Of a DNA stretch of 64,000 bases, positions 5,710-59,379 are shown one piece after another. Position numbers and translations under genes: made by a program. The stretch's first letter is position 1. Every line of letters begins with the position of its first letter. The notes under the pieces were generated by a model. It was not told the DNA's origin. It was given only the letters and a program-made list of their open reading frames with translations, and did not search any database. Origin of the DNA: a bacterium (GTDB lineage: Bacteria; Patescibacteriota; Minisyncoccia; UBA6257; GWB1-50-10); NCBI GenBank assembly GCA_002686365.1, contig NZBZ01000001.1:58405-122404 (forward strand), in the 5' to 3' direction.

Positions 5710-5811
5710 GGAGTTATTGTATCACTCTTATAAAAAGAAAGAGGAGGCTTGTTGGGCCTCCTTATGGTGGGTTCACGAAGTCGTACTTCGTGAGGTTGTC
5801 AGCTAAATCAG

Positions 5812-6435
5812 CTACGCAGCGTGTCCCTCTTGGGCGAGGTTCTTTCCGTCCCAGCAGATTCGGAGGGAGTTGTGTGCACCTCCATGATCGTAATAGGGGG
5901 TGCTGAGTTTTGTCCCTTGGCGCATTTCGATCACTGTGACGCGAGTGGTTGTTCCGTCCATGTCGACGAAATACTCTGCAATGTCAGTAGTGGGTCGATT
6001 AGGGCGATCTACTCGCGGCTGTACAGGAACTCGTATGAGCACTAGCGCAGTTGAGTTTCGGTCTTCTGGGCTTTCGGGGCCGAGCGTTGGCGGCTCTCCG
6101 TTTCCTGATGGGAGAAGAGATGCTCGCGTGATCTCTATTGTCTCTGGTTCAAAACCAGTTACCCTCAGGCATGCCTCTGTGTCTCCGTGTGGAGATTCCA
6201 TGAGGGGTACGTGAAGCGTGCCATTTGTTCCAACAATGCACATTCCCTTTTGCACGCCTTGGGGTGTTGCTGTAAAGAGTAGCATTCTCACCTTTCGATC
6301 AGTGGCCCGTTCAGTTGTCGAAGATCTTGTGCTTCGTTCCAAGCACGCCAAATCATTATTGTACCAAATTTGGTGCGCTTGGAAAAAGGCGGGAGCTGTG
6401 CTTGGTGCTCCCGCGTGAGTCGTCGTAATGGTCAC
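5812..6435 (-). CDS. hypothetical protein (GC-rich island 1), immediately downstream of DAHP synthase
   Basis: 207-aa ORF with an ORF start 4 nt from the DAHP synthase stop. The composition is GC-rich and no family was recognised. GC-rich DNA inflates chance ORFs, so support is weak. Confidence 0.3.
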   Translation of the reverse strand: MTITTTHAGAPSTAPAFFQAHQIWYNNDLACLERSTRSSTTERATDRKVRMLLFTATPQGVQKGMCIVGTNGTLHVPLMESPHGDTEACLRVTGFEPETIEITRASLLPSGNGEPPTLGPESPEDRNSTALVLIRVPVQPRVDRPNRPTTDIAEYFVDMDGTTTRVTVIEMRQGTKLSTPYYDHGGAHNSLRICWDGKNLAQEGHAA

Positions 6436-6438
6436 GGA

Positions 6439-7635
6439 TTAGAGCTGCGCTGCTCTGTCTCCGCCGCCTTCTTCGAGGGTTCCTTTGCCGACGACCGTTT
6501 TGGCCCTTCCGAAGAGCCGTTCCCGGTCATCAGAGACTCGTTTCTCGTAGATCGGCTCGAGGGCCGCGGAAGGGACGTAGAGATGGGCGATGGTCTCGCG
6601 TAGTTTCCATACTTCCTTTGTGGCTTCGACGAGATTCCCTATCTGTTCAGGGAAGAGTGTTTGGAATCCGTCTGACTTGGCGACGAGCGGATTCGGGTGT
6701 GCCTCGACGAGCAGTACGGAGGCTCCTGCGAGGATGCCCGCGAGCGTCATTGGGTGAACCAGGTCACGGTTTCCTGTGCCGTGAGAGGCGTCGATTGCTG
6801 CGGGCAGATGAGTGAGTTGGTGGTGGAATGCGGCGATGGACCCGAGGTCGAGAGTGTTGCGCGTGTATTGAGAGGGTCCCGTTACTCCGCGCTCGCAGAG
6901 TATGATGTTCTCTTTGCCATTGATCATCATGCGTTCAACCCAGAGGAGGTAGTCCTCAGGATCGAGAGAGTTCCCTCTCTTGTGGATGACTGGCAGGTCG
7001 GTCCCTCGTAGCGCGTTCAGGAGTATGGTGTTGCGGCTGTTCGGCTCGCCGATCTGAAGGCAGTCCACGCCTGCGTCTTCATAGACGTTAATGAGGGAGG
7101 GGTCGAGGATTTCCACCACGACAGGCATTTGGTGTTCGCGTCCGGCTCTGACGATATACCGAAGTCCTTCGATGAGGTCATCGGTGGATTGTGCTCCAAT
7201 CCCTTCCCAGCCGCTGTATGGGCTGGAACGGTACTTGTGCACGCCGCCGCGGAGGACGTGCGCGCCAGCATCCTTCATAATGCGCGCCGCTTCCATCATC
7301 TGACGCTCGCTCTCGATGGAGCAGGGTCCGGCCACGACGACGAGGTCTCCACCGCCGATCGTTACGTTCCCGATTGGGAATGTTGAGTAGAATCGGTCGG
7401 TCCCCGTGCCTTTCTGCGTTGCGCGTTTGTAGGCGCGCGAGATGGAGATGATTTCCTCGACGCCTGGCATCTCGAAGATACGCCCGCGAGGGGCTTGGGA
7501 GACATCTCCGTAGACGCCTATCAGCGTGTGATCCTTGCCGGGCATCTTTCCAGTTTCGAACTCGAGCTCTCTGAGTAGTCTTTCCACGGCGCTGATCTGG
7601 GCCCTGGTTGCTCCTTGTCGCATCTTGACGATCAT
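6439..7635 (-). CDS. 3-deoxy-7-phosphoheptulonate (DAHP) synthase, type I-beta with N-terminal ferredoxin-like regulatory domain
   Basis: The core VVAGPCSIESERQ...VLRGG...KYRSSPYS...ILCERG...IDASHG aligns with Thermotoga/Bacillus-type KDO8P/DAHP synthases. An extra N-terminal domain of about 80 aa is present. Confidence 0.85.
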   Translation of the reverse strand: MIVKMRQGATRAQISAVERLLRELEFETGKMPGKDHTLIGVYGDVSQAPRGRIFEMPGVEEIISISRAYKRATQKGTGTDRFYSTFPIGNVTIGGGDLVVVAGPCSIESERQMMEAARIMKDAGAHVLRGGVHKYRSSPYSGWEGIGAQSTDDLIEGLRYIVRAGREHQMPVVVEILDPSLINVYEDAGVDCLQIGEPNSRNTILLNALRGTDLPVIHKRGNSLDPEDYLLWVERMMINGKENIILCERGVTGPSQYTRNTLDLGSIAAFHHQLTHLPAAIDASHGTGNRDLVHPMTLAGILAGASVLLVEAHPNPLVAKSDGFQTLFPEQIGNLVEATKEVWKLRETIAHLYVPSAALEPIYEKRVSDDRERLFGRAKTVVGKGTLEEGGGDRAAQL

Positions 7636-7828
7636 TCTTCGTCTCCCTCTCTGTCGTCTGACTCTGAATCAGGATGATGAGTGCAGTTGTCTTGGTTGCT
7701 CGGGTGGTCTGCTCGTTCTGGGTCCTGCCTCGGAGTTCTGGGTAGATGAAGAGTCTGCTTCTTGTCATGTCCTATGGGCAGCAACATTCTTGTGCGTGTC
7801 GTCGCCATGATTTTTCCTCTCGCTATTC

Positions 7829-8170
7829 CTATTTGATCTGGAAGGGCTTTCCAATGAAGCCGCAGCCTTGTCCTCGGCAGGAGCGTCTGCTTTGGCCGTC
7901 TCTTGTGGTGATTTCTATCAGTTTTTCTTCACCACATTTTGGGCAGGAGCCCTCTTCCCAGTCTATTCCAAGGTGTATGCTCATGGGATCTGGTCTTGTC
8001 TCGCGGTACTTACTCAGGAAGGGCATGACTTTCTTTCCGTGTCCGTGACGTGTTTGCAGCAGAATCAGGCCGATGTTTGCTGCGTTGTAAGGTGCAATTT
8101 GGCCTGAAAGTTGAGTGTTTTTTACAAAATACCCAATTTTCAAGTCAAAGATTTTGCGTTGTCCGCGCAC
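7829..8170 (-). CDS. hypothetical zinc-ribbon protein
   Basis: The C-terminal CPKCG...C-x2-GC motif looks like a zinc ribbon. The N-terminal part is AT-richer and the start is uncertain. A bidirectional hairpin terminator lies at about 8178-8203. Confidence 0.3.
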   Translation of the reverse strand: MRGQRKIFDLKIGYFVKNTQLSGQIAPYNAANIGLILLQTRHGHGKKVMPFLSKYRETRPDPMSIHLGIDWEEGSCPKCGEEKLIEITTRDGQSRRSCRGQGCGFIGKPFQIK

Positions 8171-8402
8171 TAAAACAAAACGCCCCTTGGCTAGGGGGTT
8201 TTCTTTAAACTATGTGTTTATTTTAGCTTTTCGCTTCTGAAAACCACCTAACCCTTGGAGGGCATAAAGAAAAATCCAAAGAAAAAGGTGTTTTGCGGTG
8301 ATTTCATGATTGATTGCATTTTTGCAGGTTTATGGTTTTTTGTCAAATAAAAAAAGAGCCTTTAACGGAAGGCTCTTGCGTGTAGATTAGTGTTGGTGGG
8401 TG

Positions 8403-8624
8403 TTAGCCGCCGAGCTGCATTATCGTAGCGGGGATAGCTCTTGTCCCCAGTATTCGAAGTTCGCGTGTCAGGGTTTGGCGGAGTTCGTCGTCGCTTGTAG
8501 CCCTCTGTAGCCTTCGCTCAAGCGTTGCTTGTTGGGTAAGCTGGTCGTGAAACCTTCTTTCCAACTTAGCCCGATGTGTGGCGAGGTCTGGGTGAACGAG
8601 TTCTCCAGGAAGGTCGGCGGTCAT
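8403..8624 (-). CDS. small hypothetical protein (73 aa) ending in Gly-Gly, translationally coupled to upstream gene
   Basis: Its start codon overlaps the stop of the 8624-9196 ORF. The C-terminus is ...IMQLGG. An intrinsic terminator hairpin lies just downstream at about 8345-8372. Confidence 0.35.
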   Translation of the reverse strand: MTADLPGELVHPDLATHRAKLERRFHDQLTQQATLERRLQRATSDDELRQTLTRELRILGTRAIPATIMQLGG

Positions 8625-9196
8625 TACTCGCTCTCCTCGTCTGGTTCGCCTAGGGCCTTGTTTAGGCCGTCTACGAATGCGAAGAAGAAGGCTTCGGTCG
8701 TGTTGCGGCTTTCGCCGACGCCAGTTACTTCCTCGTCGTTCACTTGGAGTGGCAGTTCGACTCTTCCCGTTGCTGCTGTTTTGTCTTCGTCCGTGGCTGT
8801 TGTTGCTTCGTCTCCATTCATGATGTGCACTGGGATTTCATCTCCGATGAGCTGTAGATCTGTTCCAGTTGCTTTCTGGATAGCTTTGGCGATGGCGTTC
8901 CAGGGTCCTTCTCCAGTCGATGCTTCTACGTGTTTGTCACCGTCGATGTCGATGACTACGTTGGCCGTTGTTGTGACGCTGTTTCTTGGTCCTTCTGCTG
9001 CGTCTCTGTCTGCATCAGGCTTTGTTCCCGTGATGCACAGGAAGCTGTGTGCTTTATACTTCGGCATCGGTTGTCCTTTCCGGACATGTGATGTCTTCTT
9101 GTACACCGGTCTATACATTGAAGACGTTTTCGATGAACGTATTGCTTTTCCGGAAAGTAGATATTTCTTCTGAATTATCCACTTTCCGAGGCACAA
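8624..9196 (-). CDS. standalone LeuA-allosteric(dimer)-domain-like acidic protein
   Basis: The segment VVIDIDGDKHVEASTGEGPWNAIAKAIQKATG...VELPLQVNDEEVTGVGESRNTTEAFFFAFVDGLNKAL resembles the C-terminal regulatory domain of 2-isopropylmalate synthase (GNGPVDA-type). It is very acidic. The true start is probably internal (MPKYKAH near 9067). Confidence 0.45.
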   Translation of the reverse strand: MCLGKWIIQKKYLLSGKAIRSSKTSSMYRPVYKKTSHVRKGQPMPKYKAHSFLCITGTKPDADRDAAEGPRNSVTTTANVVIDIDGDKHVEASTGEGPWNAIAKAIQKATGTDLQLIGDEIPVHIMNGDEATTATDEDKTAATGRVELPLQVNDEEVTGVGESRNTTEAFFFAFVDGLNKALGEPDEESE

Positions 9197-9532
9197 TTTG
9201 TGTGTATAAAAAATACCCTTTGGTTAGGGTATTTTGCAAGTTTTTGTAATCGTATTAACTCAAAACGCCCTAACCGTGGGATTCTGTAAGGAGGAGGTTA
9301 AGAAGAAGTCCGTTTTGATATAGCACAACTGCTTTTTGCATGTTGAGTATATTTTATTGGTGGTTTGGTGTTTTGTCAACTCCGTTAGAGCTTGTCTTTT
9401 TGCCGAAAGCGAAACGAACTTAGGGACAAGCTCTAACGGGGTCAATTTTTAGGCTGTGGATAAAGAAAATGCCTCCGAGGGGTTGCCTGGAGGCGTGATG
9501 TGAGGATGATGATTCCTCGGTTCGTGGTTGTG

Positions 9533-10042
9533 TCAGTCTGGACAGCGAAGATCGTCTGCGCGATGTGTTTCTGCGACTTCGTCGAGCATTCCGTCGCATT
9601 CTTTCTGTATCCTGCGCGCGGCGCAGCATGCACCTGCTTGCCAGTTTAGAAGCTCGTTGTCGCTTGGCCGTTTTCGACGTACCAGTATGTGTTTGCGGGC
9701 GTTTTGGGCCCATTCCGGCGCGTTTTCCTTCGCGTATCGTTCTGTCCGGCACCATCTTCCCCAATCACTGAGTGATCCATTGGAGAAGACTGCGACATTC
9801 CACATTCGGTCCGTTGGCCCCTCGATGTCGGAGAGTAATTGTACAGCGCGTCCTCTGTTTTCCAGCTCACGGACGAAGTCGACTGCCGCGCGATCCTCTT
9901 CTCGAGCTACGAAGACGACTGGCACGTTTTCGCGCTTACGCTGGTCTGGGGGGTTGGATCTGTATGCAGGGAATTCTTCGCACGGCCAGTCTGGATCGGG
10001 TATGTCTTCGTGGTCGGGATTGTGTTCTGCGGTGGTGTTCAC
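9533..10042 (-). CDS. hypothetical protein, possible TIR/flavodoxin-like fold
   Basis: The stretch VVFVAREEDRAAVDFVRELENRGRAVQLL fits a beta-alpha-beta start like TIR-like domains, which is only suggestive. It lies in a GC-rich island. Confidence 0.25.
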   Translation of the reverse strand: MNTTAEHNPDHEDIPDPDWPCEEFPAYRSNPPDQRKRENVPVVFVAREEDRAAVDFVRELENRGRAVQLLSDIEGPTDRMWNVAVFSNGSLSDWGRWCRTERYAKENAPEWAQNARKHILVRRKRPSDNELLNWQAGACCAARRIQKECDGMLDEVAETHRADDLRCPD

Positions 10043-10074
10043 ACACGGATTCCTTTGTTGGGAGGGGTTGGGGC

Positions 10075-10320
10075 TCAGGAGGCGAAGACGACGTCTTGAG
10101 TTACATAGAAGTCGGTGATGGGATCGAGTGCTGGTTTGCTGACCTTTTTCGGCCTAGGCGGTCTGGCCTCTGGCAGGCCCATTTCACGCCTTAGGGCATG
10201 CCAGCGTTCCCTGAGGCCACGCCTCTTTTTGGGGTCGAGTCCCATCCTCTCAAGCTGTTTTGTGATCCACGCGAGTTCTTCCTTGGGCGTTATCTTGCGC
10301 TCGGCTCCTGTATTAGTCAC
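10075..10320 (-). CDS. small basic hypothetical protein
   Basis: 81-aa Arg/Lys-rich ORF in a GC-rich island. Support is weak. Confidence 0.2.
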   Translation of the reverse strand: MTNTGAERKITPKEELAWITKQLERMGLDPKKRRGLRERWHALRREMGLPEARPPRPKKVSKPALDPITDFYVTQDVVFAS

Positions 10321-10722
10321 TCTCTTCCTCCTGTTCTGGTGACAGACATTTCTTGGTATCTGAACCGCTCGTCTTGTCGCGAGGAAGGTCGGAATGTCTT
10401 TCGCCCTGTGCTCGGGAGAATTGGCAGTGTTCTCCGTTTGGGTTTTGTAAAGAGCGTTGGTTTCTGTCTACGTTCGGCACTTTGTCACGTTGACCAGGTG
10501 CCAAGTTAAACAAAAACGCCTCCCGATTGGGAGGTCTGCAGCATTATTTATTATGTTTAAGCTATATATGCAAAACTCCCAACCGTTTGAAGGTCTTCTT
10601 TTCTATCTTGATGACAATAAGACAGAGAGTTTTTTGCATTTGTTTTATTTTAATATTTTTTGTTTTTTTGTCAATTTTCTGCCTGTGGATAAGAGTTAGG
10701 GACAAGGTTTTTGTGTGTGTGC

Positions 10723-10772
10723 ATTTATGTACACTCTTAATGCGACCGCATCATGAGTGTACATATGTAATT
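10723..10772. repeat. TGTACAC palindromic repeat, copy A
   Basis: ATTTATGTACACTC-ttaatgcgaccgcatcat-GAGTGTACATATG. Confidence 0.5.
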
Positions 10773-10773
10773 T

Positions 10774-14548: not shown

Positions 14549-14575
14549 ATATATTTTCCTCATTCACAAGTCTCC

Positions 14576-14674
14576 GCGTATTGTAATTCTTTACTCGCTC
14601 ATTACGCTCATTTCCCACCCTGCTTCGCGGGTACCCGGTGAATGAGCTATTTGCTCGTAGAATTACTAATACGC
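14576..14674. other. imperfect long inverted repeat downstream of dnaE
   Basis: GCGTATTGTAATTCT...CTCGCTCATT // AATGAGC...AGAATTACTAATACGC flanking CCCACCCTGCTTCGCGGGTACCCGGTG. Confidence 0.3.
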
Positions 14675-15505
14675 TTTGACACGTTCATTGCGGAAAATAT
14701 CTTTACTTTTTGGAGTATGTTGTTTGCACTTCCATATGGGGTTATGGGTTGAGTTATAATTGAAATCCCTCGTCGCCATAGCTTCTCGGGACACTCAATT
14801 TCGTAGCTTCTCCGCCAGTTGGCGGATCAGACGAAATTGGTGGGTGGAGGGGGTCTGTAGGTACTTTATTCGATGCACTGCATCGAATAAAGGGCATAAA
14901 AAAAGACCGGCAAGCGTGTTGCTTTGCCGGGGTTGCGATACGGCTCCGTTGGGCTGACGGGCCGGCGACTATAGGAAGCGGAAGCGCGTTTTCATCGCGT
15001 TCCTCCTTTGTTGTAGGTCGACTCGGCTTGGACGTTGATTGTCATCAGAAGACGAAGAACGACGAGAGTGCGATGGCCGACATGGGAAGTGCCCAGGACA
15101 ATCTGAGTAGGAAGAAGGTCAGTCCTCCCTCTTTTTTCATGACAGCTCCATGGAGGTTAAGGCCTCGGTTGTCAGGCGTTCATCAGCGTGTGGAGTCCTA
15201 AGACCAGAGCGGGCGCCAACGCTCCTGCGAAGACTTTGAATCGGTTCCTGTATGCCCATCTGAGCAGTCTCATCAATGCGTTCCTTATGGGTTGTAGAAA
15301 AGGGGCCCGTCGAGGCGCGTGACAAGCGCCGCGAGCTCGTATGGGCCCGCTGCCGGGAAGTTAGAGGCTCTAAACAAGAGGGCTGTCCGCCCTAGCCATA
15401 AGAAGTCAATCCCTCTTGTTTCAACCTATTTTCATAGTATCATATTTTGTGATTGTGTCACGATGGGTTTTAGAAGTTTCATATAGCGTGTATAATCGTA
15501 TATGT

Positions 15506-17693: not shown

Positions 17694-17781
17694 AACGGGA
17701 AGGAGGTCACACACTAGGCGGACCTCCTCGTAACCATCCGTGATGGTTCCTGTTTTTGGGCTAGCGAGCGATTATTGTGCG

Positions 17782-18207
17782 CTAGCTAATGGTTGATGCG
17801 ATGACTGGTCTTTCGCATTGAGCGAGCGTTCCTTCCCACTCCTCTCTTCCTTCTGCGAGGCGTTTGGCTCCTGTCTCTCGTTGTTCCTCTGACCATGCGC
17901 CCAACTCGTGTTCTCGTTGCGCTCTCTCCATGCCCTCTGCCCAGACTGTGAGTGCATGGTTCACCAGAGATCGCAGCCCTCGTCTCGGCATCTTTACAAC
18001 GAGGATCCATCCCGAACTCGGATCCTTTCTGTTTAGGAATCTGGTTCCGATCGCGAAACCATGGTCGAGAAACCAGTCCTGTCTATCTCTGGTCAGGGCG
18101 GGCTGAAGCAGTTTCCAGAGGTGGGTCGTCATGGGTATCCCCCCATTATTTGAGTGACTTCTGGAATCATCGCAGGATGTTAATCGTAACCTGCTTTGTT
18201 TATACAC
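17782..18207 (-). CDS. hypothetical protein (GC-rich island 3)
   Basis: 141-aa ORF in a 500-bp GC-rich patch. No family was recognised. Confidence 0.3.
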   Translation of the reverse strand: MYKQSRLRLTSCDDSRSHSNNGGIPMTTHLWKLLQPALTRDRQDWFLDHGFAIGTRFLNRKDPSSGWILVVKMPRRGLRSLVNHALTVWAEGMERAQREHELGAWSEEQRETGAKRLAEGREEWEGTLAQCERPVIASTIS

Positions 18208-24880: not shown

Positions 24881-24993
24881 GGCCTTTTTACTCCTTTATT
24901 ATACCAAAAGGGGGGGCTTGAAACAAGGGAAATTTGGGCCTGAAAAGACGAAAAAAAGACCGGCGTTTCGGATTACGTCGGCCTTGCGTTGAG

Positions 24994-26556
24994 CTAGTCG
25001 GTTGCTTGTTCCCCTTGGGAAGGGTGCAGGGCAGCCTTGATCGCTGCTTCTTCTGCCTCCTCCAGAAGACTGGTGAGTCTCTGAGAGCATGCTATTGCGA
25101 TGCGGAGTCGACCAACCCTCTCTTCCGGACTTTCGGCTTCAGCGTCCTGCCAGCGCGACTCGATGCTTCGAAGTAATTCGAGTGCTGGATCGTCAGACGT
25201 TTGTTGTTCGGTCGTCGGCTCATCAGATGGGGCGTCTGCAGGCGGCGCAGTCTCTTGGTCGAAGGGTCCGATGATCCAAATCTGCGGTCCAGTTGGATCT
25301 ACTCGGACTTGCCTTACGACTCCTCGTGCTTCGAGGTCTCCTCCCCTTCTTTTGGCTGTCGGCTCAGTGTATTTCGTGAGTGCTTCGATGGCTTCCCATG
25401 GAATGGACTGTAGGCGCAGCCATCCGTCTTTGAGGCCAACTTGGACAATCGTGTCCTTCTGAAGAAGAAGATCGTGGATCTCTGCTAGCGTGAATCCACT
25501 GCCTCTCAGATGACTCTCTTGGACGTGACCGTGAAAGTCGGCGAGCGTACCGTATTCTGTCTTGTGACGGGGACAGATGATTGCTGGCTCACTGGTTGGG
25601 GCTGGGTCTTGGTCGTTACCTCCTGCGTGGTCTGCGTCGTGTTCGGGCGCGTCATCGTCGGGGCTGATGACGGTGATTGTGTCGCCGTGGTCTTCGATCC
25701 TTCCATCTCCTGCGAGTGAGGAAAGGTAGGCCTCTTCCGCGTTGTTGTCTTCAGCTGTATCTCCTAGTGCGTCCTGCAGCCAAGTAGAGATTGTTCGGAT
25801 CGCAGCTTCACGAGAGATTTGTCCGTTGCTGTCAGCAAGATCAAGAAGGACTCTGTGGGCGTCTTCGAGGGTCAGGCTGCTGCTGTCGTCGGTTTCGACT
25901 TCATCTGCGGCCGCTGATTCGCTTCTGGGTCCTCTTGCGGTAGTCGTCCCGGCTCCTTGGGTGGATCCTTGTGTCTCGGATGCCTCACGTCTTCTTCGTG
26001 TGGGTCTTCCTGTCTCGTGATGTCCGTGCGAAGCCTGCGTAGTCGTCCCACCACTTTCAGGTGGTTCAGTGATGATCCAGACAGGTTCTTCCTCTCGAAT
26101 GGCTCCTGTGTTGATCAGGGCGGTTTCTATGCCTAGCCCGTTCGAGCCTGGCATGGCCTCCAGGAAACTCGCGGGGCGAATTTCCATCTGACGCGTCACG
26201 TCTCCAGCATTCACCTGGTTAGCATTGTTCCAGAGTAGCACGTGCGCGCGTCTCTGCGCCTCTGCGGTCTGCACGGCACTTGCTTCGTCTCTTGCCATTA
26301 GTTCGCTCCTTCCCGCTGTTTCGGCGGGAGGCTGTTCCTTACGTGATGTTGGGAGTGCAAGACGGGGGCTTGGCTCGAGATCTTCAGTCTGTACAGTTAT
26401 CTCTTGCCTTGATGCTCTTCGTCGGTGGATCGCGAGTTTTCGCTCTCTGGGCCTAGTGATGGAAAACTCTCCGGGCCCATCGATGCTCATCAGGTGGTTT
26501 TGGATGAGTTGGAGCGTTGCATCTCCTGCTTCTTCTTCAGAAATCTCTAGTTGCAT
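24994..26556 (-). CDS. hypothetical acidic protein (GC-rich island 4)
   Basis: 520 aa, Asp/Glu/Thr-rich, with a CPRHK...HGHVQESH Cys/His cluster. No family was recognised. Confidence 0.35.
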   Translation of the reverse strand: MQLEISEEEAGDATLQLIQNHLMSIDGPGEFSITRPRERKLAIHRRRASRQEITVQTEDLEPSPRLALPTSRKEQPPAETAGRSELMARDEASAVQTAEAQRRAHVLLWNNANQVNAGDVTRQMEIRPASFLEAMPGSNGLGIETALINTGAIREEEPVWIITEPPESGGTTTQASHGHHETGRPTRRRREASETQGSTQGAGTTTARGPRSESAAADEVETDDSSSLTLEDAHRVLLDLADSNGQISREAAIRTISTWLQDALGDTAEDNNAEEAYLSSLAGDGRIEDHGDTITVISPDDDAPEHDADHAGGNDQDPAPTSEPAIICPRHKTEYGTLADFHGHVQESHLRGSGFTLAEIHDLLLQKDTIVQVGLKDGWLRLQSIPWEAIEALTKYTEPTAKRRGGDLEARGVVRQVRVDPTGPQIWIIGPFDQETAPPADAPSDEPTTEQQTSDDPALELLRSIESRWQDAEAESPEERVGRLRIAIACSQRLTSLLEEAEEAAIKAALHPSQGEQATD

Positions 26557-26752
26557 GAGAATTCCAACAGGAGATCCTGTGAATGTCCGAACATCACTGG
26601 TCTCTGTGGCGCTAGCTGCGGCACGGTTCCAGAGGATGCGATGTATTCTTATGGGCGGCTTGGATACTTTCCATCCTTTTCTGGTGTCGACGAGGACGTA
26701 TCTCTTCCGCAGCTCACTGATAGCGTCTTGAGCGTAGCTATCATCTGCTCAC

Positions 26753-26774
26753 GTATGCAAATAAATTTGCATAC
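26753..26774. promoter_or_regulatory. perfect 22-bp palindrome (candidate operator)
   Basis: GTATGCAAAT-AA-ATTTGCATAC at the boundary of GC-rich island 4 and tRNA-Leu. Confidence 0.35.
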
Positions 26775-26789
26775 TTCCCGCGCTAGCAA

Positions 26790-26822
26790 AAATCCCGACT
26801 CTTATAAGAATCGGGATTTCTC
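26790..26822 (-). terminator. intrinsic terminator downstream of tRNA-Leu
   Basis: AAATCCCGA/TCGGGATTT stem, followed by a T-run on the minus strand. Confidence 0.6.
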
Positions 26823-26828
26823 TAGTAG

Positions 26829-31560: not shown

Positions 31561-31564
31561 CAGG

Positions 31565-37034: not shown

Positions 37035-37078
37035 ATTTATGTACACTCTCGATGCGACCGCATCAGGAGTGTACATAG
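37035..37078. repeat. TGTACAC palindromic repeat, copy C
   Basis: ATTTATGTACACTC-tcgatgcgaccgcatcag-GAGTGTACATAGG. It shares the inner ATGCGACCGCATCA with copy A. Confidence 0.5.
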
Positions 37079-37911: not shown

Positions 37912-38895
37912 ATGACTTTCCAAACAGACCGTCCTCCGACGCAGACGTTTGACCATCGCCGCAAGTTCCGCAAGTTCCGCCGAGTGGCACCCTTCCTCGT
38001 CGCGATCGCAGCCGCAGTAGCGCTCGGCGTCCCGATGATGACGACGGACGCGTTGACCGACAGTCAACAGGCGACGGTAGCCCTGACCGCGGACCAAATC
38101 GGTGCGACGCTCAACGACGTGGCGACCCCGCGCGACACCGCGCAGATGTGCGTTTTCGCCGCGGGGACCGATGCGACTGACGCGAGCCCGGCCATAGTGC
38201 AAACGCTGACGGCCGAGCAGACTCGCCGAACCATGGACCTTGATGCGGTTGCCGACGCGACGCGCGGATCGCCCGAGACCGGCTCTTCGACGATGACCGT
38301 AGCCATGGTCACGCGGAGTACCTTCCCCGAGATGACGGATGGTGCACCCGCCGCTGTGGGCACGGTCGCTCTCGTTGACGAATCGGCCTCAGCTGAAACC
38401 ACCACTTCGGCATTCGTCGTGGAAATCGCGCAGTGTGCTGCCGGAATTGTCGAATCGACGACGGCGCGCGCAGAATCAACCCAGGAGATCACCGTTCAGG
38501 GCGTCTACTCAGAGCAGCACGGCATCGTCACGATGACCACGCAAATCGCCGTCCAGCCCGCTGAGCAGGCCGAGGTCGTCGAGACGTCAGCCGAAGTCGT
38601 TGGTACCATCGTCGCGATGACCATGGAGACCGCCGGTCAGAGCGCCGAACGTCAAGTCGAGATCGCGGCTATCACCGCTCAACATGGCATCGAGCAGATG
38701 GCGGCCGCGGAGTTCCCGGGACAGTACTGTGGTGAAGCAATCGCGATGGCGGCAGACAGCGGCCAGTGCGATGTACAGCGGATCGAGGCGGACGCGTTCT
38801 CACGGCACCCCCAAGTGGCGCTCGCAGTCACGCAGCACCGAAGCGCGGCGGTTGCGACGATGGCGGCGTCGGTCGACGCTCATCCGCGGGCCTGA
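37912..38895 (+). CDS. hypothetical Ala/Thr/Glu-rich secreted or membrane-anchored protein (GC-rich island 6)
   Basis: A basic N-terminus then a hydrophobic segment (FLVAIAAAVALGV). The rest is low-complexity and acidic. GC is about 62%. Confidence 0.35.
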   Translation: MTFQTDRPPTQTFDHRRKFRKFRRVAPFLVAIAAAVALGVPMMTTDALTDSQQATVALTADQIGATLNDVATPRDTAQMCVFAAGTDATDASPAIVQTLTAEQTRRTMDLDAVADATRGSPETGSSTMTVAMVTRSTFPEMTDGAPAAVGTVALVDESASAETTTSAFVVEIAQCAAGIVESTTARAESTQEITVQGVYSEQHGIVTMTTQIAVQPAEQAEVVETSAEVVGTIVAMTMETAGQSAERQVEIAAITAQHGIEQMAAAEFPGQYCGEAIAMAADSGQCDVQRIEADAFSRHPQVALAVTQHRSAAVATMAASVDAHPRA

Positions 38896-39021
38896 TCCTC
38901 GAGAGACCAGGCAGGATCCTCCACATTGGCTCTTCGGAGTCATCACACCAAGGTCTTCCTACAGACCACACGAGGCGACTACATGTTGCCTCTCTTTTTT
39001 TATATGCGCGCAAGCGCTTTT

Positions 39022-44466: not shown

Positions 44467-44493
44467 ATCGATAGCTTTTAGCTTATAGCTTCA

Positions 44494-45009
44494 TTAGCTT
44501 TTAGCTTTTGTCTTTTTCTTTTCTTCTTTGGCTTTCAAGGGTACTCTAATTTCCTTGTAGAAATCAAGCATTTTGTCCCTGTCTTTGGTTTTTGATACTG
44601 CGGTTATCTGCATCCCAAAGTTTACTTTTGATGTGTTCGGGTCGATTTCCGGAAATACAAGCTGATCTTTTAGTCCAATGTTTAGATTTCCTGCCTTATC
44701 TACGTTTTTTCTTGAAAGTCCACGGAAATCTTTTACACGAGGAAGAACAACGTGAATAAGCCTTTTTAAAAAGTCATCCATCTTGTTTCTTCGGAGGGTT
44801 ATCTTTATCCCTATGGTATCTCCAACCCTTGTTTTGAATCCGGCAATCGATTTTTTTGCGGGCATGTGTATTGGTCTCTGCCCTGTGATTGCCGCAAGTT
44901 CTTTTGTAATTTCCGGAAGGGTCTTGTCTTTGAAATTTGCCCCCTGACTTTGTCGGCCAACTCCTGCGTTTATTACCACTTTTTCAATTTTTTCTCGTAT
45001 CTTTTCCAT
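44494..45009 (-). CDS. rplE: 50S ribosomal protein L5
   Basis: L5 family, ...VVINAGVG...LPEITKELAAITGQRP. Confidence 0.9.
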   Translation of the reverse strand: MEKIREKIEKVVINAGVGRQSQGANFKDKTLPEITKELAAITGQRPIHMPAKKSIAGFKTRVGDTIGIKITLRRNKMDDFLKRLIHVVLPRVKDFRGLSRKNVDKAGNLNIGLKDQLVFPEIDPNTSKVNFGMQITAVSKTKDRDKMLDFYKEIRVPLKAKEEKKKTKAKS

Positions 45010-45294: not shown

Positions 45295-45660
45295 TTATAC
45301 AAGATCTTTTGCCAAAGATGCGATTGCGTCGAATCCTTTTTCTTTAACCTCTCTTGGAATGGGCCCGAATACTCTTGTTCCGCGAGGATTTTTTCCATCA
45401 ACTAGTACTGCTGCGTTTTCATCAAATCGAATGTATGATCCGTCTCTCCTTTTTGTTTCTTTTCTTGTACGCACTACAAGCGCTTTTACAATATCTTTCT
45501 TTTTCACCTGCTTTCTTGGCTCTGCAGTCTGAACTGAAGCCACAAGAACATCTCCAATTCTGGCATATCTTCGCCTTGTTCCTCCAAGAATTCTAAAGCA
45601 ACGCACTTTTTTTGCGCCTGAGTTGTCCGCTACTTTTAAAATTGTTCCTTCTTGAATCAT
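45295..45660 (-). CDS. rplN: 50S ribosomal protein L14
   Basis: [19 protein letters not shown]. Confidence 0.9.
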
Positions 45661-45664
45661 GTTA

Positions 45665-45967
45665 TTAGCTTATAGCTTCGTTAGCTTCACTAGCTTCATT
45701 AGCTTCGTTAGTTTCATTAGCTTCACTAGCTTTGTTTTCTTTTGTTTTCTCCACTATTTTCCACCTTTTGTCTTTACTTATTGGCCTTGTCTCTTCGATA
45801 ATCACCTCATCTCCTGTTTTGTACTCATTCTTTTCATCATGCGCCTTAAAACGCCTAGTTACCTTAATAAACTTCTTGTAGAGTGAGTGTTTTTTCAGTC
45901 TCGAGATTTCCACAACTCTCGTTTTTTCCATCTTATCGCTTACGATTGTACCTTTTAATTTTTTCAT
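45665..45967 (-). CDS. rpsQ: 30S ribosomal protein S17 with repetitive EANEA C-terminal tail
   Basis: [18 protein letters not shown] core. The tail [21 protein letters not shown] is encoded by the AGCTTC-repeat motif. Confidence 0.85.
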
Positions 45968-46096
45968 CCCTCACTCTTGGCGCATTGGGACGCCAAATTA
46001 ATACTTATTCTTTCGACTTGTGTGTTTCTTTGGTTCATTGTTTTGTTTTTGTCCCTTACCCTTACGCAGTTATGTGCCAAGAGTGTAGGGATTCAT
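45965..46096. mobile_element. MITE-like inverted-repeat element, copy 1
   Basis: Terminal inverted repeats CATCCCTCACTCTTGGCGCA ... TGTGCCAAGAGTGTAGGGAT, about 132 bp, intergenic between rpsQ and rpmC. Confidence 0.45.
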
Positions 46097-46916: not shown

Positions 46917-47597
46917 TTAATTTGTGTTATTGGTGTCGTCAAATATTTCTCCTTTATATATCCATACTTTTACACCAATAGTTCCATAGGAGTTGTATGA
47001 TGTTGTTTCTCCATAATCAATATTTGCCCGTAGAGTCTGAAGTGGCATCCTCCCGAATGCGAGCCACTCTCTTCTTGATATTTCTGCGCCGTTTAATCTC
47101 CCTGCAAGTTTAATCTTTGCCCCCTGCACTTCTCTATTTTGTTTTAGGAGATCGAGATGCCGCTTCATAATTCTTCTGTATGGAAGCCGTCGTTCTATAT
47201 CAAATGCTATCTGTCCAGCTACTACAGAGGCAGACATCTCAGTGCGTTTTAGCTCTTCAATATTTATGTTGAGCGCAAATTGTTCTGATGCGTTGTTTTT
47301 TCTTCGGAGCGCGTTCATCTCCTTTGCCAAAAAATTTTTAAGGTCTTCTATTCCCTTTCCTCCCCGCCCTATGATAAGGCCCGGACGGCTCGCTTTTACA
47401 GAAACTTTAACTTCTTTTCCGGTGCGTTCAATGCGAATCTCATCAATTCCTGCCTGCGCGATTTTTTCTTTTACAATTTCACGAATAAGATGGTCCTCTT
47501 CAATAAAGAATTTTTGAGACTTCTTAAAGAACCATCTGCTTTTCCAGGGCTTTGTGATTCCTAAACGTAGTGAGATTGGTTTTATTTTTTGGGCCAT
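46917..47597 (-). CDS. rpsC: 30S ribosomal protein S3
   Basis: KH plus S3-C domains. PISLRLGITKPWKSRWF. Confidence 0.9.
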   Translation of the reverse strand: MAQKIKPISLRLGITKPWKSRWFFKKSQKFFIEEDHLIREIVKEKIAQAGIDEIRIERTGKEVKVSVKASRPGLIIGRGGKGIEDLKNFLAKEMNALRRKNNASEQFALNINIEELKRTEMSASVVAGQIAFDIERRLPYRRIMKRHLDLLKQNREVQGAKIKLAGRLNGAEISRREWLAFGRMPLQTLRANIDYGETTSYNSYGTIGVKVWIYKGEIFDDTNNTN

Positions 47598-47662
47598 ACT
47601 TTTAGCTTATAGCTTTTTTAGCCTTAGGCTAATCCGCCTTTGGCGGAAGCTTCATTAGCTTC

Positions 47663-49815: not shown

Positions 49816-49833
49816 ATTGTTAGCTTATAGCTT

Positions 49834-50502
49834 TTAGCTTTTAGCTTCCTTAGTTTTTTTCTTTCCAGTCTGGTTGTTTATAAATTCTTCTACTGCCTCT
49901 TTTTCAAAGATAATGAGCTTGTGCGTTATGCAGTCCCGCAGATTCACTCCGTTTGGATATGTAATTTTGTTCTTTTCTATATTTCTACCTGCAAGAATAG
50001 AATTTTTTTCTCCCTGCTTGGAAACAAGAAGAGTCGTCAGTCTTGTCTTTTTTTCTACTTTTGTTATTTCTTTGATCGCCTCTGTCATTTGTTTTGTTTT
50101 TGGCTCTGTAACTCCAAAGGTGTCTAATATTTTTACTTCTCCGTCTTTTAGCTTTCTTGAAAGAGTTGAATAGAGAGCTCTTTTTCGCATCTTTTTATTT
50201 ACTTTTTTTGTAAAGTTTCTTTCTTTTAGCGGGCCAAACGTAACACCTCCTCCAGCCCAGATTGGAGATCGGCTTGAGCCGTGACGCGCTCGTCCGGTTC
50301 CCTTTTGTCTCCATGGTTTTTTTCCTCCTCCCCGCACTTCGCTTCTGTCTTTTGCGTGCGCCAAAGGACTTCTCCTGCTTGATTGCATAGAAGTAAACAC
50401 TTGGTGTACGAGATTTGGATTCCACGGCCTTCCAAAGATTTCATTTGAAAGCTCTATGGTCCCACCTTTCTTATTCTCTTTGTTTAAAATATCTACCTTC
50501 AT
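49834..50502 (-). CDS. rplD: 50S ribosomal protein L4
   Basis: ...GGGKKPWRQKGTGRARHGS. Confidence 0.85.
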   Translation of the reverse strand: MKVDILNKENKKGGTIELSNEIFGRPWNPNLVHQVFTSMQSSRRSPLAHAKDRSEVRGGGKKPWRQKGTGRARHGSSRSPIWAGGGVTFGPLKERNFTKKVNKKMRKRALYSTLSRKLKDGEVKILDTFGVTEPKTKQMTEAIKEITKVEKKTRLTTLLVSKQGEKNSILAGRNIEKNKITYPNGVNLRDCITHKLIIFEKEAVEEFINNQTGKKKTKEAKS

Positions 50503-51880: not shown

Positions 51881-53080
51881 CTATTTAGTAATCTTTGTTA
51901 CAACTCCAGCGCCTACAGTCTTTCCTCCTTCGCGAATTGCGAATCTTTGCTTTTCTTCAAGCGCAACAGGGGCGATAAGCTTTATAGAAACGTTTGCGGT
52001 ATCTCCCGGCATTACCATCTCGATACCTTCTCCAAGCGTTACTTCACCCGTTACGTCAGTCGTTCTCAGATAGAACTGCGGCTTGTATCCTTTGAAGAAT
52101 GGAGTGTGTCGTCCGCCTTCCTCTTTGCTCAAGACATACACTTCTGCCTCGAATTCGGTGTGCGGCGTTACACTCCCCGGCTTTGCGACTACCTGACCTC
52201 GCTCTACGTCCTCTTTTTTGAGGCCGCGTAGAAGAACTCCTACGTTGTCACCAGCCTGACCTTCATCGAGGAGCTTCTGAAACATTTCTACTCCTGTAAC
52301 AACGGTCTTTTGCGTGTCACGGAGTCCAATGATTTCTATTTCCTCGTTTATTTTAACAATTCCTCTCTCAACTCTTCCGGTTACCACTGTTCCTCTTCCT
52401 TCAATTGAGAATACATCTTCAATTGGCATGAGAAACGGCTTATCAACATCTCTAACTGGCTCTGGGATGTTTGAATCGAGAGCTTCGACGAGTTCGAGTA
52501 TCGGCTTCGCATCTTCATCGTCAGCAGACTTTGTTTCCAAGGCTTTTAGTGCTGAACCTTTGATTATTGGAGTGTCGTCTCCCGGAAACTCATACTTATT
52601 CAAGAGCTCTCGAACTTCTGACTCCACGAGTTCGACGAGTTCTGGGTCGTCAACTGCGTCGGTCTTATTCAAGAAAACGATAATTGCTGGAACGCCCACC
52701 TGTCGCGCGAGAAGAATGTGCTCTCGCGTTTGAGGCATTGGGCCGTCTGCAGCAGAGACTACAAGAACTGCGCCATCCATTTGCGCTGCGCCGGTAATCA
52801 TGTTTTTGATGTAGTCGGCGTGTCCTGGCGCGTCAATGTGCGCATAGTGTCTCTTTTCTGACTCATACTCTGAGTGATGCAGTGCAATAGTAATTCCACG
52901 CTCTTTTTCTTCAGGAGCATTATCGATCTGATCAACACCTTCTGCCTTTTTTGCAAGTCCTTTCATATTAAGAACGTGCATCATTGCCGCAGTAAGAGTT
53001 GTCTTTCCGTGGTCGACGTGTCCAATTGTTCCAACATTTACATGAGGTTTGGACCTGTCAAATTTTTCTTTTTCAGCCAT
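51881..53080 (-). CDS. tuf: elongation factor Tu
   Basis: [22 protein letters not shown]. Full EF-Tu. Confidence 0.95.
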
Positions 53081-53260
53081 GGTTAGTAATTAGCTTATAG
53101 CTTCATTAGCTTGTTAGCTTTCGGAGTTTATTTTTCCTATGAGCTAACAGCTAAAAACTAAAGAGCTATTATATATTTCGACCTATGAACACAAATAAAA
53201 TGTGTGCTTTATTATATCAAACCCATTTATTATTGGCTATTTGGTAAGAATTTGTCAATT

Positions 53261-55396: not shown

Positions 55397-55450
55397 GCCT
55401 AAAATCAGCTTATAGCTTTTAGCTTGTAGCTTATGGCTTGTATAATTTTA

Positions 55451-55924
55451 CTATCTTCTAACAAAGCTTGCGAAGGCGCGGTTTGCCTCTGCTACTCTAT
55501 GCGTGTCCTGCTTCTTCTTTATTGCCTCACCTTCATTTTTTGATGCTGCGATTATTTGCTCGGCAAGCTCTTTGTGCATCGGCTTTCCTTTCTTAGATTT
55601 TGCCGCGTTTATAATCCAATGTGCTGCTAAAAAGAATTTTCTTTCCGGACGAACTTCCATGGGGATTTGATAGTTTGCGCCTCCTACTCTGCGGGAAACT
55701 ACCTCTACCATAGGAGTAGCATTTGCCATCGCGTCCTCAAACGTTTTTGCGGGGTCAGACTTTGTTTTTTTCTTTACTTCTTCAAGCGCCCCATAAAATA
55801 TTTTTTCTGCTACGGCTTTCTCTCCGTCTAACATTATATAGTTAATAAACCGACCCATGTCGATTCTTCCATATTTAAAATCCGGTTTTGAATCAATTTT
55901 TTTGTATGCTCCTCTTTTTCTCAT
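55451..55924 (-). CDS. rpsG: 30S ribosomal protein S7
   Basis: S7 family. Confidence 0.9.
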   Translation of the reverse strand: MRKRGAYKKIDSKPDFKYGRIDMGRFINYIMLDGEKAVAEKIFYGALEEVKKKTKSDPAKTFEDAMANATPMVEVVSRRVGGANYQIPMEVRPERKFFLAAHWIINAAKSKKGKPMHKELAEQIIAASKNEGEAIKKKQDTHRVAEANRAFASFVRR

Positions 55925-56406: not shown

Positions 56407-56505
56407 AAACTAGCTTATAGCTTCTATATTATATAAATTATATGAAGCGGTTTAAGGATATGGGAAAAAACCTCTATTTGTCAAGTGTTTTAGGTGTTTT
56501 TTGCT

Positions 56506-57847: not shown

Positions 57848-57992
57848 TTATGAATCCCATCACCCTTGGCGCATAACATTGCGTAGGGCAAAGGGATAGA
57901 ATAAGATAATCAGGCATAAATACAATATTCAGTCGAAATAATATCTTTAAGTTGGCGACACAATGCGCCAAGAGTGAGGGATGAAACAGTGC
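57848..57992. mobile_element. MITE-like inverted-repeat element, copy 3 (inverted orientation)
   Basis: TGAATCCCATCACCCTTGGCGCAT ... ATGCGCCAAGAGTGAGGGATGAAA. The right end is the reverse complement of the copy-1 left end. Confidence 0.45.
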
Positions 57993-58169
57993 GAGGTTTG
58001 TAAAAAATCACATATGATGGGTGGGGTTCGGAAGCTTTTGCGCGGAAATTATAATCCTGTGAATTGGAAGAAAAAGAAGGCAAACATTCAGAAGACACTT
58101 GATCCCAAGACTGGGAAGCGGATTTTAGCGTGTACACGGTGCATTAAGACTATGGCAAAGACGAAATAA
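57981..58169 (+). CDS. rpmB: 50S ribosomal protein L28 (zinc-ribbon form)
   Basis: 62 aa with CEVCKK...ACTRC and a basic L28-like pattern. A strong palindromic terminator follows at 58246-58292. Confidence 0.6.
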   Translation: MKQCEVCKKSHMMGGVRKLLRGNYNPVNWKKKKANIQKTLDPKTGKRILACTRCIKTMAKTK

Positions 58170-58245
58170 GGATAAGCTAAAAGTTGGTAAGTTTGTAAGT
58201 TATGAGTTTAAAAGATGTCCATTTGTTGGGCGTTTTTGTTTTTCT

Positions 58246-58292
58246 CACTACCCTCATTCGTACGAATGAGGGTAGTGATGATTTTTTGTTTA
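58246..58292 (+). terminator. intrinsic terminator after rpmB
   Basis: Perfect 34-bp palindrome CACTACCCTCATTCGTACGAATGAGGGTAGTG, then a T-run. Confidence 0.7.
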
Positions 58293-58545
58293 ATTGACTT
58301 TTTGGCTGGGTTTTTTGATAATTTTAGTAGATATTGCTGGTAACGTGTTACGTACTTACTCTGCCTACCCTAAGTACGTCGCGGCTAGCGCGTTGTCAGC
58401 TCGTAATGAGCTTGTGAGATGGTAGCTCATTATGCTTTGAACTCCTCAAAAAAAGCTCCCCTCCTGTGTGTTGGGAGCTTCGTATTTCTGTAAAGAAAAT
58501 CCCTCACAACGGATGCGAGGGCTTATGGGTGTGCCGTAGGCTCGG

Positions 58546-58995
58546 CTACGACGTGAGAGGCAGGGGCGCTGCCTGAGCTGCCTCCGGAGGCGTGGTGATG
58601 ACGAGATCAACACGCATCGGCGTTTGCGGAGCCGTGGCAGGACTAACGGTATCCATAAGTCTGCTCATGCGGGCGATCAACTCTTGAAGCTCGGGGTGCA
58701 GAGTGCTTTCCGTTGTCATGGCATGAACTGCCGGAATCAGCTGCTGGTAGCAATCTCGACATATTCCGCCTGCTTCTCTGACATGCGTTGAGCACCGCTT
58801 CGTGTCGGCTTTGTGTGCCTCCAAGGTTTTGTCAAACTGTTCCACCAGCGCATCCAGGCAGTCTTTGAAGTCCGTTGGCACCTCAATCAGCATTTCACTA
58901 TCTCCTTCTCTGGCAGACCGGGAACGACAAAGCGCCAAGCTTCGGCACTTCCGGCTACCAAAGAAGAAGTCTGGGTTTTCAACGTGCTGTGGCAT
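58546..58995 (-). CDS. hypothetical protein with C-x2-H-x7-C-x2-C motif (GC-rich island 7)
   Basis: ORF of 149 aa. The likely real start is MLIEVPTDF. It contains CSTHVREAGGICRDC. No family was recognised. Confidence 0.3.
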   Translation of the reverse strand: MPQHVENPDFFFGSRKCRSLALCRSRSAREGDSEMLIEVPTDFKDCLDALVEQFDKTLEAHKADTKRCSTHVREAGGICRDCYQQLIPAVHAMTTESTLHPELQELIARMSRLMDTVSPATAPQTPMRVDLVITTPPEAAQAAPLPLTS

Positions 58996-59379
58996 TCTAC
59001 CACATGAGGTGTGTTTACTGTAACACGTAAGTAGTTTTTTGTCAATAGGAGGCAGGAAGTGGACAAGAAACAGTCGTGGAGACAGCGCCGAGAGAAATCC
59101 GGAGGCTGATTCCCTTTAGGTCAGACCCCCTGTGGACGCTACTTCAGTATGACCATTCTTCGTCTTGCTCGACGACGATGCGCCTGACTGGAGCAAGGCA
59201 TGCGACGCCTGGTCTTGGCCATGGCCATGGGACGAACTCCTTGCGGCGATATTTGAGTCCAGCTGGACTCCTGTGACGCAGAGGCAGCTCCCGCCCCTCC
59301 GTGCCTAATTCTACCATAATGATTAAAATTTACGCGGGAGCATGTTGATTACTTTTCCTGTTTTTTGAAACCCTTATAT

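Follow-up and report, generated by a model that had tools for sequence, protein, structure and literature searches.

Small, GC-rich and probably horizontally acquired gene islets between the core operons of a marine Patescibacteria genome

When bacteria carry foreign DNA, this is more often AT-richer than the recipient genome, and an integrase, direct repeats and a tRNA target are common in genomic islands, although not obligatory. The attC site of integrons is an imperfect palindrome of 60-140 nt with RYYYAAC/GTTRRRY cores, and clusters of attC sites lacking an integrase are referred to as CALINs. Lawrence and Ochman reportedly provided the framework for the amelioration of horizontally transferred genes. 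According to Gios et al. (2025, mSystems, PMC12455944), genomic islands and single transferred genes make up to 13% of genome length in 125 groundwater Patescibacteria, with some donors outside the candidate phyla radiation (CPR) and a competence-type uptake being proposed. Here, a stretch of 64,000 nt from a marine member of the Patescibacteriota is analysed (assembly GCA_002686365.1, contig NZBZ01000001.1, positions 58,405 to 122,404; hereafter the window), in which ten short GC-rich segments, called islets below, interrupt a low-GC backbone. They are probably small, lineage-specific and horizontally acquired gene islets within a conserved Paceibacteria backbone, as indicated by their foreign composition, their recovery in independent assemblies, the way they interrupt synteny, an encoded DAHP synthase with non-CPR affinity and the orphan proteins H and J.

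Like the Patescibacteria islands (PMC12455944), the islets are segments of foreign composition with metabolic and unknown cargo, some of it from donors outside the CPR, and they occupy a fraction in the order of 10%. Unlike those islands (PMC12455944), they form units of only 0.4-2.3 kb, ten of them in 64 kb (15.8% of the window), all GC-richer than the recipient; they carry no mobility genes, most of their cargo lacks homologues and donor-recipient pairs cannot be named. Islet 4 recalls tRNA-associated islands in lying directly 3' of tRNA-Leu(GAG), at a hot spot of variation among relatives, which holds an insertion sequence (IS)-like gene in one of them (L042), but it is a single gene without an integrase, a duplicated tRNA 3' end or direct repeats, and none of the other nine islets adjoins a tRNA gene. 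With integron cassettes and CALINs the islets share their short length, mostly single-gene and mostly orphan content and a 3' hairpin each. However, they are not arrayed, have no IntI and have apparent promoters of their own, and they end in T-tailed terminators of ~30 nt instead of 60-140-nt attC sites. As in the amelioration framework, apparently fresh transfers (DAHP synthase and protein J) stand beside partly ameliorated ones (H and A), whereas it is unusual for such cases that all foreign DNA is GC-richer than the recipient. Serial horizontal acquisition, a known process in Patescibacteria, is the most likely explanation, and it is unusually dense here. The distinctive features are the small and dense units, the uniformly higher GC, the lack of mobility genes and the cargo without relatives.

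GC segmentation was based on a sliding-window profile with a threshold, and backbone statistics were taken on 400-nt windows. The backbone has a mean GC of 0.411, i.e. 41.1% (standard deviation (sd) 0.033, maximum 0.487), and the islets, at 54.2-63.7% GC, lie 3.9-6.8 sd above this mean. An initial annotation of the window had reported seven discrete GC-rich patches. The patches are confirmed and their positions are essentially right, but ten segments are resolved, since the region of 5.7-10.5 kb consists of three modules with AT-rich spacers and the region of 36.2-39.0 kb of two modules with 1.1 kb of normal-GC DNA between them (Table 1). Altogether, the islets are spread across 54 kb. Beyond the window, GC rises slightly, to 52% in 200-nt windows, at two places within positions 19801-20400 of L003, ~2.2-2.8 kb left of the window start, one of which covers a 67-aa open reading frame (ORF) without a Pfam match; these may be further mini-islets.

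The composition of the islets differs from the backbone in more than GC content. GC at third codon positions (GC3) is 0.49-0.74 in islet genes versus 0.28-0.49 in backbone genes (at most 0.42 in all except miaA), and the GC enrichment of islet genes extends to every codon position, the second (GC2) included. The GC-normalised dinucleotide distance (δ∗) between pooled islets and backbone is 170, with relative abundances of 0.46 for TA, 1.33 for GA/TC and 0.82 for CC/GG in the islets, and of 1.28 for AA/TT, 0.71 for AC/GT and 1.22 for GC in the backbone. In a leave-one-out comparison, islets 1a, 1b, 1c, 3, 4 and 5 lie at a δ∗ of 50-110 from the other islets versus 166-204 from the backbone; the placement of islet 7 is ambiguous, and islet 6b is an outlier to islets and backbone alike. 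Among the 72 loci of Paceibacteria relatives that exceed 5 kb, some of them at 53-54% GC, none comes within a δ∗ of 143 of the islet signature, and therefore GC-rich close relatives are unlikely donors. Many of these loci lie at 62-100 from the backbone. The Muto-Osawa relationships give the codon-position GC expected at a given genomic GC. By this measure, the DAHP synthase gene (0.64/0.43/0.68 for positions one to three) is at the equilibrium of a 59% GC genome and looks unameliorated. The values are 0.66/0.53/0.74 for J, 0.67/0.50/0.52 for H and 0.59/0.51/0.49 for A.

Next, synteny with related genomes was considered. A GyrB scan of GTDB species representatives returned Paceibacteria/Parcubacteria metagenome-assembled genomes (MAGs), with a best identity of 83%. 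Dozens of these relatives keep the order gyrB-nusG-L11-(dcd-dNK)-gatB-miaA-thrS-dnaE, and the order L19-tRNA-Leu(GAG)-gyrB is kept in those whose loci extend that far. Between thrS and dnaE, nine of eleven relatives have an ORF-to-ORF gap of -31 to 493 nt, versus 867 nt here, where islet 2 resides. The gatB-miaA gap is at most 404 nt in about half of the relatives versus 671 nt here (islet 3). From tRNA-Leu to gyrB, the gap measures 0.7 kb in L021, 1.4 kb in L013 and 1.9 kb here, with the 520-aa orphan of islet 4, while the 4.9-kb gap of L042 contains an IS-like transposase gene along with accessory genes that are unrelated. Large gaps in relatives are filled at backbone GC or lower, and among the gaps measured only two short ones, in L010 and L056, exceed their own backbone. 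No homologues of islet proteins were found in the relatives' loci, nor was any DNA similarity of islet and gap sequences to these loci detected. Islets 2, 3 and 4 are thus absent from the syntenic sites of relatives; the remaining islets lie outside the relatives' loci. Per kb, the relatives show ~8x fewer GC peaks, and 16S rRNA or tRNA genes account for several of them. The closest GyrB relatives (L009-L013, L016 and L021, 69-83% identity) have backbones of 50-54% GC versus 41% here, pointing to a large GC shift in the lineage. One of them, L009, is labelled 'Nanoarchaeota archaeon' yet shows a bacterial Paceibacteria-type synteny, and this MAG is probably mislabelled.

The cargo of the islets was described in the initial annotation as ORFs of no recognisable family. 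This is true for H and J, but not for the DAHP synthase, a LeuA_dimer domain protein and protein I. The DAHP synthase of islet 1a is a complete type I-beta enzyme (Pfam E=5e-46) with an N-terminal ferredoxin-like regulatory domain. Its best relatives share ~70% identity; the named ones among these best hits, which were not placed in a tree, are Poribacteria, Thermodesulfobacteriota and Binatia, and none bears a CPR name. Two Poribacteria-type DAHP synthase loci that were examined have 58-63% GC. Co-transfer of the small ORF upstream of the gene was considered and rejected, this ORF not being homologous to its Poribacteria counterpart. As a CPR lineage, this one would be expected to lack the rest of the shikimate pathway. 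In islet 1b, the LeuA_dimer-only protein aligns only to the C-terminal regulatory domain of LeuA models (positions ~400-494). Low-GC DNA encodes the Lys-rich N-terminus of the protein and only the domain part is foreign, so the gene looks like a foreign fragment fused to a local start. A word-indexed protein search with it returned only itself and a PDB search returned nothing.

Proteins H (520 aa) and J (327 aa) match only themselves in a full HMMER search of 1.84 billion representative proteins. The start of J is preceded by TAGGAG, 8 nt ahead of the ATG. In the same protein set, protein I has ~39 distant homologues (25-36% identity, 340-404 aa). Its AlphaFold model, with a predicted local distance difference test score (pLDDT) of 87.7, suggests helical repeats plus a small alpha/beta domain, and a fold search with this model points only to generic HEAT/ARM-like helical repeats. 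In genomes of 27-40% GC, homologues of protein I have native GC. A narrower scan of metagenome contigs gave only two loci of this family, one on a ~52% GC contig and the other a native gene of a genome with 27% GC. One homologue, P0016 (L092 1116-2252, from the unrelated metagenome SRR22388041), has 55.6% GC between L20 and IF3 genes of ~42% GC, and its δ∗ to the islet pool is 70; L098, a sibling contig of L092, stops short of this site. Every islet protein looked up is a singleton at 90% identity. The smaller islet ORFs have no match in Pfam, PHROGs, PADLOC or NCBIfam. Tests for phage and defence functions gave one marginal PHROGs match (E=1.2e-3) and none in PADLOC, and no relatives of H or of the protein I family were found in IMG/VR. 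Islet 2 contains no ORF longer than 65 aa, and the stretch 59050-59300 of islet 7 is GC-rich without an ORF. A 31-aa strongly hydrophobic ORF, 15045-15140(-), MKKEGGLTFFLLRLSWALPMSAIALSSFFVF, is present in islet 2 with a Shine-Dalgarno sequence and hairpins after it; speculatively, it resembles a type I toxin.

The Asp/Glu-rich, halophile-like signature ascribed to the islet proteins does not hold. Their Asp+Glu fraction (0.09-0.20) is the same as that of most backbone proteins (0.11-0.19), and their isoelectric points (pI) span 4.5 to 10.3. Where the pI is low, this is due to the depletion of Lys (0.01-0.04 versus 0.10-0.17 in the backbone, partly replaced by Arg), an amino-acid consequence of GC-rich codons.

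From the sequence, each islet looks like a self-contained transcription unit with a predicted promoter and intrinsic terminator (Table 1). The initial annotation had placed hairpins, palindromes and small repeats at the borders. This stands for the 3' terminators, for the structured stretches 14560-15060 (left border of islet 2) and 26557-26827, which fold far better than shuffles (z ~-5), and for a palindrome found three times beside patches 1 and 6, but flanking direct repeats are absent. The border hairpins are mostly ordinary terminators. Islets 1c, 5 and 7 end in a similar 28-nt terminator-like module, AGGCAAYCCCT...ATTTTCTTT, with 71-82% identity. The 46-nt palindrome has an 8-nt core, TGTACACT, with six matches versus 0.75 expected; its copies occur only beside islets 1 and 6, and their conservation is limited to the 46-nt core and does not extend to the flanks. 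Palindrome and 28-nt module are both absent from all 80 relatives and from IMG/VR viral contigs. At the islet borders, no flanking direct repeats of at least 12 nt and no att-type or target-site repeats were found. An attC-like array was not found either, the 3' hairpins being ~30 nt with T-tails, although IntegronFinder was not run. Islet 4 is the only islet next to a tRNA gene.

Table 1. Positions in the window of the islets, their genes, predicted border elements and tRNA genes
Feature	Position	Strand	Islet or site	Details
Islet 1a	5751-8001	-		55.7% GC
Islet 1b	8426-9051	-		54.2% GC
Islet 1c	9476-10476	-		55.5% GC
Islet 2	14851-15401	-	dnaE / thrS gap	55.4% GC
Islet 3	17751-18126	-	gatB-miaA gap	54.5% GC
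Islet 4	24976-26726	-	tRNA-Leu(GAG) / gyrB gap	55.9% GC
Islet 5	29451-30651	-		56.7% GC
Islet 6a	36351-36751	+		58.4% GC
Islet 6b	37876-38976	+		63.7% GC, GC3 0.74
Islet 7	58451-59301	-		55.2% GC
ORF A	5812-6435	-	1a	207 aa, or 157 aa as called
DAHP synthase	6439-7635	-	1a	398 aa, FXD + DAHP_synth_1
58-aa ORF	7632-7808	-	1a	
ORF B	7829-8170	-	1a	113 aa, weak Zn-ribbon match
ORF C	8403-8624	-	1b	73 aa
LeuA_dimer-only protein	8624-9196	-	1b	called start 9118
ORF E	9533-10042	-	1c	169 aa
ORF F	10075-10320	-	1c	81 aa
ORF G	17782-18207	-	3	141 aa, or 116 aa as called
Protein H	24994-26556	-	4	520 aa, acidic, orphan
Protein I	29417-30565	-	5	382 aa, small unnamed helical-repeat family
57-aa ORF	36436-36609	+	6a	AAGGAG upstream
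Protein J	37912-38895	+	6b	327 aa, orphan, N-terminal membrane anchor, Ala/Thr/Val-rich
ORF K	58546-58995	-	7	149 aa
Promoter-like site	8346-8318	-	1a	sigma-70-like
Promoter-like site	9379-9351	-	1b	sigma-70-like, falls in AT-rich spacer
Promoter-like site	10674-10647	-	1c	sigma-70-like
Promoter-like site	30720-30692	-	5	sigma-70-like
Promoter-like site	37736-37763	+	6b	sigma-70-like
Promoter-like site	59045-59017	-	7	sigma-70-like
Predicted terminator	5762-5742	-	1a	hairpin + T-run
Predicted terminator	8377-8354	-	1b	hairpin + T-run
Terminator-like hairpin	9489-9462		1c	hairpin + ATTTTCTTT
Predicted terminator	~14935-14897	-	2	hairpin + T-run, read from sequence
Predicted terminator	~24990-24950	-	4	hairpin + T-run, read from sequence
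Terminator-like element	29388-29361		5	
Predicted hairpin + T-run	~36812-36850	+	6a	strong, read from sequence
Predicted terminator	38972-38992	+	6b	hairpin + T-run
Predicted terminator	58521-58501	-	7	hairpin + T-run
46-nt palindrome, copy 1	10723-10768		between terminator 10802-10781 and islet-1c promoter	TATGTACACTC...GAGTGTACATA
46-nt palindrome, copy 2	35685-35730		55 nt past topA stop	67% identical to copy 1
46-nt palindrome, copy 3	37035-37080		between islets 6a and 6b	91% identical to copy 1
tRNA-Leu(GAG)	26828-26913			Rfam/ARAGORN
tRNA-Ile(GAT) + tRNA-Ala(TGC)	31489-31641	+		Rfam/ARAGORN

A chimeric assembly, one of the options of the initial annotation, or a mis-binning would mean that a CPR contig had been joined with reads from a GC-rich organism, and abrupt GC steps, orphan cargo and a low-coverage metagenome are compatible with it. 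However, the window is 99.98-100% identical to contigs of three assemblies made with different software: MEGAHIT (k127_1115952, ERZ909154, final k=127), SPAdes (NODE_786 and NODE_3067, ERZ11848503, coverage ~5x) and a Tara scaffold (TARA_SAMEA2619974 scaffold_59, 132,894 bp, ERZ2773065). The source sample is the 0.1-0.22 um fraction of mesopelagic Tara station 037, and the proteins are deposited as MAF795xx with locus tag CL629_. In all three assemblies, the ~20 GC junctions are identical base-for-base. The assemblies differ by 1-4 single-nucleotide polymorphisms, all in the backbone (L11, topA and one intergenic site) and none in the patches, and are therefore not copies of one another, though every junction agrees. 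The longest repeat in the window is 74 nt with 77% identity, so repeat-mediated mis-joins are unavailable. Moreover, each islet lies precisely between a promoter and a terminator, with intact flanking genes, and the islet 1b ORF crosses from low-GC into GC-rich DNA in a single frame. A chimera is thus effectively refuted as well as extremely improbable, and the GC-rich patches are real. Since GC peaks in AT-rich genomes are often rRNA or tRNA genes, as are several of the peaks in the relatives, and RNase P genes are likewise GC-rich in such genomes, the islets might also be GC-rich structured RNA genes with spurious ORFs. Islets 2 and 6a lack long ORFs, and parts of 14560-15060 and 36200-36500 fold with z values of -3.8 to -6.7 versus shuffles. 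On the other hand, folding is unremarkable in the cores of islet 2 (14960-15460) and islet 6a (36400-36700), with z values of +0.5 to -0.9, and Rfam (gathering threshold, and even E<=1) together with ARAGORN detects only three tRNAs and no rRNA in the window, none of them within a patch. An rRNA operon with introns, considered for the 5.7-10.5 kb patch, was rejected for the lack of rRNA. ORFs of 327-520 aa cannot be chance products at 56-64% GC, where ~3.8% of random codons would be stops by a base-composition estimate, and the Pfam domains and the pLDDT of 87.7 of a predicted fold show real proteins. RNA genes are thus extremely improbable as an explanation of the patches.

Another possibility might be that the islets are native genes of atypical composition, either leftovers of a GC-richer ancestor or the result of selection on protein or mRNA. 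The nearest GyrB relatives (L009, L010, L011, L012, L013 and L016) are indeed GC-richer than this genome, other genomes hold members of the protein I family at their native low GC, and GC3 in H, A, E and G is below the expectation from GC1 and GC2. Nevertheless, this origin seems quite improbable: the islets (54-64% GC) are GC-richer than those relatives, at a dinucleotide δ∗ of at least 164, and the syntenic sites of the relatives hold no homologues. Weakly constrained orphans should lose GC fastest, not slowest, a GC3 of up to 0.74 at synonymous sites is beyond protein-level selection, and the DAHP synthase groups with non-CPR phyla. Native-GC orphan genes sit just outside the window, and therefore orphan status does not explain the GC-richness. 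The initial annotation also raised an unknown cassette system with repeat-marked boundaries. This could be an organised system of dispersed cassettes, integron-like or new, in which a dedicated recombinase recognising the palindrome and the 28-nt module would insert GC-rich single-gene cassettes at defined sites. Three palindrome copies with an enriched core, the module shared by three islets and the mostly orphan cargo, as in integron cassettes, fit such a system. It is very improbable, however, as no recombinase gene is found in the 64 kb or the flanks examined, the islets are dispersed without flanking direct repeats or an attC-like array, the palindrome marks only two of the seven regions and the module three of ten islets, both elements are absent from relatives and viral contigs, and hairpins with T-runs act as ordinary terminators. 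An unlikely variant of foreign origin is that the islets are repeated captures from a single GC-rich partner, namely the physical host of this episymbiont or a mobile element or virus circulating among CPR. It is prompted by the non-Paceibacteria signature that islets 1a-c, 3, 4 and 5 share and that is also seen in P0016; some captures may then have been delivered by an unrecognised insertion mechanism marked by the palindrome and the 3' module.

Of the origins proposed in the initial annotation, it is the serial horizontal acquisition of cassettes that gains support, from codon-position composition, dinucleotide signature, interrupted synteny and the non-CPR relatives of the DAHP synthase. 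Under this reading, islets of 1-4 genes and 0.4-2.3 kb would have been inserted one by one into intergenic gaps between housekeeping operons, retaining the base composition of GC-richer, non-Paceibacteria donors. They might have entered by uptake of environmental or host DNA and been fixed by illegitimate recombination instead of an integrase or transposase. This route fits the lack of mobility genes and of att or target-site repeats, the truncated LeuA, the metabolically isolated DAHP synthase and the presence of dprA within the window (32687-33592). Competence and pilus genes are general in CPR. The islets may have arrived at different times, because the DAHP synthase, I and J are at the equilibrium expected from a donor of 57-65% GC, but H, A, E and G have a lowered GC3, in line with partial amelioration. 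Most of the cargo, i.e. a lone DAHP synthase, a solitary LeuA regulatory domain and orphans, is probably accessory or nearly neutral.

Several points weigh against horizontal acquisition or parts of it. The dinucleotide signature of islet 2 is backbone-like (δ∗ of 74, versus 126 to the islets), and the tetranucleotide z-score correlation between islet halves is 0.38 versus 0.13-0.37 to the backbone, a measure that is too noisy at 4-5 kb to tell the two apart or to test for a single donor. Only islets 2, 3 and 4 can be compared with relatives, the nearest of which has just 83% GyrB identity, and every copy derives from a single population (Tara station 037, mesopelagic), in which no presence/absence polymorphism was seen. 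No donor is identified, and the lack of relatives of H and J is odd for a cellular donor in a well-sampled ocean. Integrase and transposase domains are absent among the scanned ORFs, the precomputed Pfam calls and the flanks examined, as are att or target-site duplications. The promoters lie in AT-rich, native-looking DNA, meaning that whole units were not simply pasted in. Finally, the odd amino-acid composition of the orphans suggests some caution on different residence times, as it weakens that inference.

Besides the islets, the window contains the backbone genes smc, rnc, nusB, rnhB, dnaE, thrS, miaA, gatB, dNK, dcd, L11, nusG, secE, gyrB, L19, a pseudouridine synthase gene, dprA, topA, map, adk, secY, the ribosomal-protein operon, tuf, fusA, S7, S12, mgsA, lexA and an FKBP gene. 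At 26828-27576(-), the gene of a free-standing LAGLIDADG endonuclease (232 aa, 36% GC) overlaps the 5' part of tRNA-Leu(GAG); the same pair occurs in L042 (741-1501) with 53% protein identity, so the association is conserved. The tRNA-Ile(GAT) and tRNA-Ala(TGC) genes, the usual 16S-23S spacer tRNAs, are paired without an rRNA gene nearby, and L021 has the pair close to the syntenic position. Between islets 6a and 6b lies a candidate structured RNA of ~330 nt, 37245-37600(+), which ends in a hairpin with a T-run (minimum free energy -128 kcal/mol, z=-5.0 against 100 shuffles; a second test gave z=-4.5). No similar DNA was found in relatives, and a reading as RNase P, based on size and motifs by eye, is unsupported, with no Rfam match even at E<=10.

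A 40-nt sequence is present at 45962-46001 and 57947-57986 as an inverted pair, 93% identical, and spans the 5' leader and start codon of S17 and of a 62-aa ORF (57981-58169) on opposite strands. This ORF looks like L28, and the two genes may share a regulatory leader. Short recurring motifs of two families, TAGCTTNTAGCTT (period 7-9 nt) and TAGGATATAAGACTTAGGA, occur mostly at gene boundaries of minus-strand backbone genes, with copies at 5319-5358, 44467-44509, 45652-45741, 47591-47624, 49821-49860, 53079-53116, 55413-55452 and 56411-56443 and further sites at 19788, 29327, 43291 and 61347. Some copies lie within coding tails and none in islets.

If the islets were captured from a single partner, their composition could reveal the host of an uncultured marine CPR bacterium. 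In practical terms, compositional filters for cleaning MAGs could wrongly remove such regions as contamination. As for the organism itself, a streamlined marine CPR genome can carry ~16% of recently imported GC-rich DNA between its core operons with no visible mobility genes, which fits the idea that competence uptake, and not classical mobile elements, drives gene gain in CPR.

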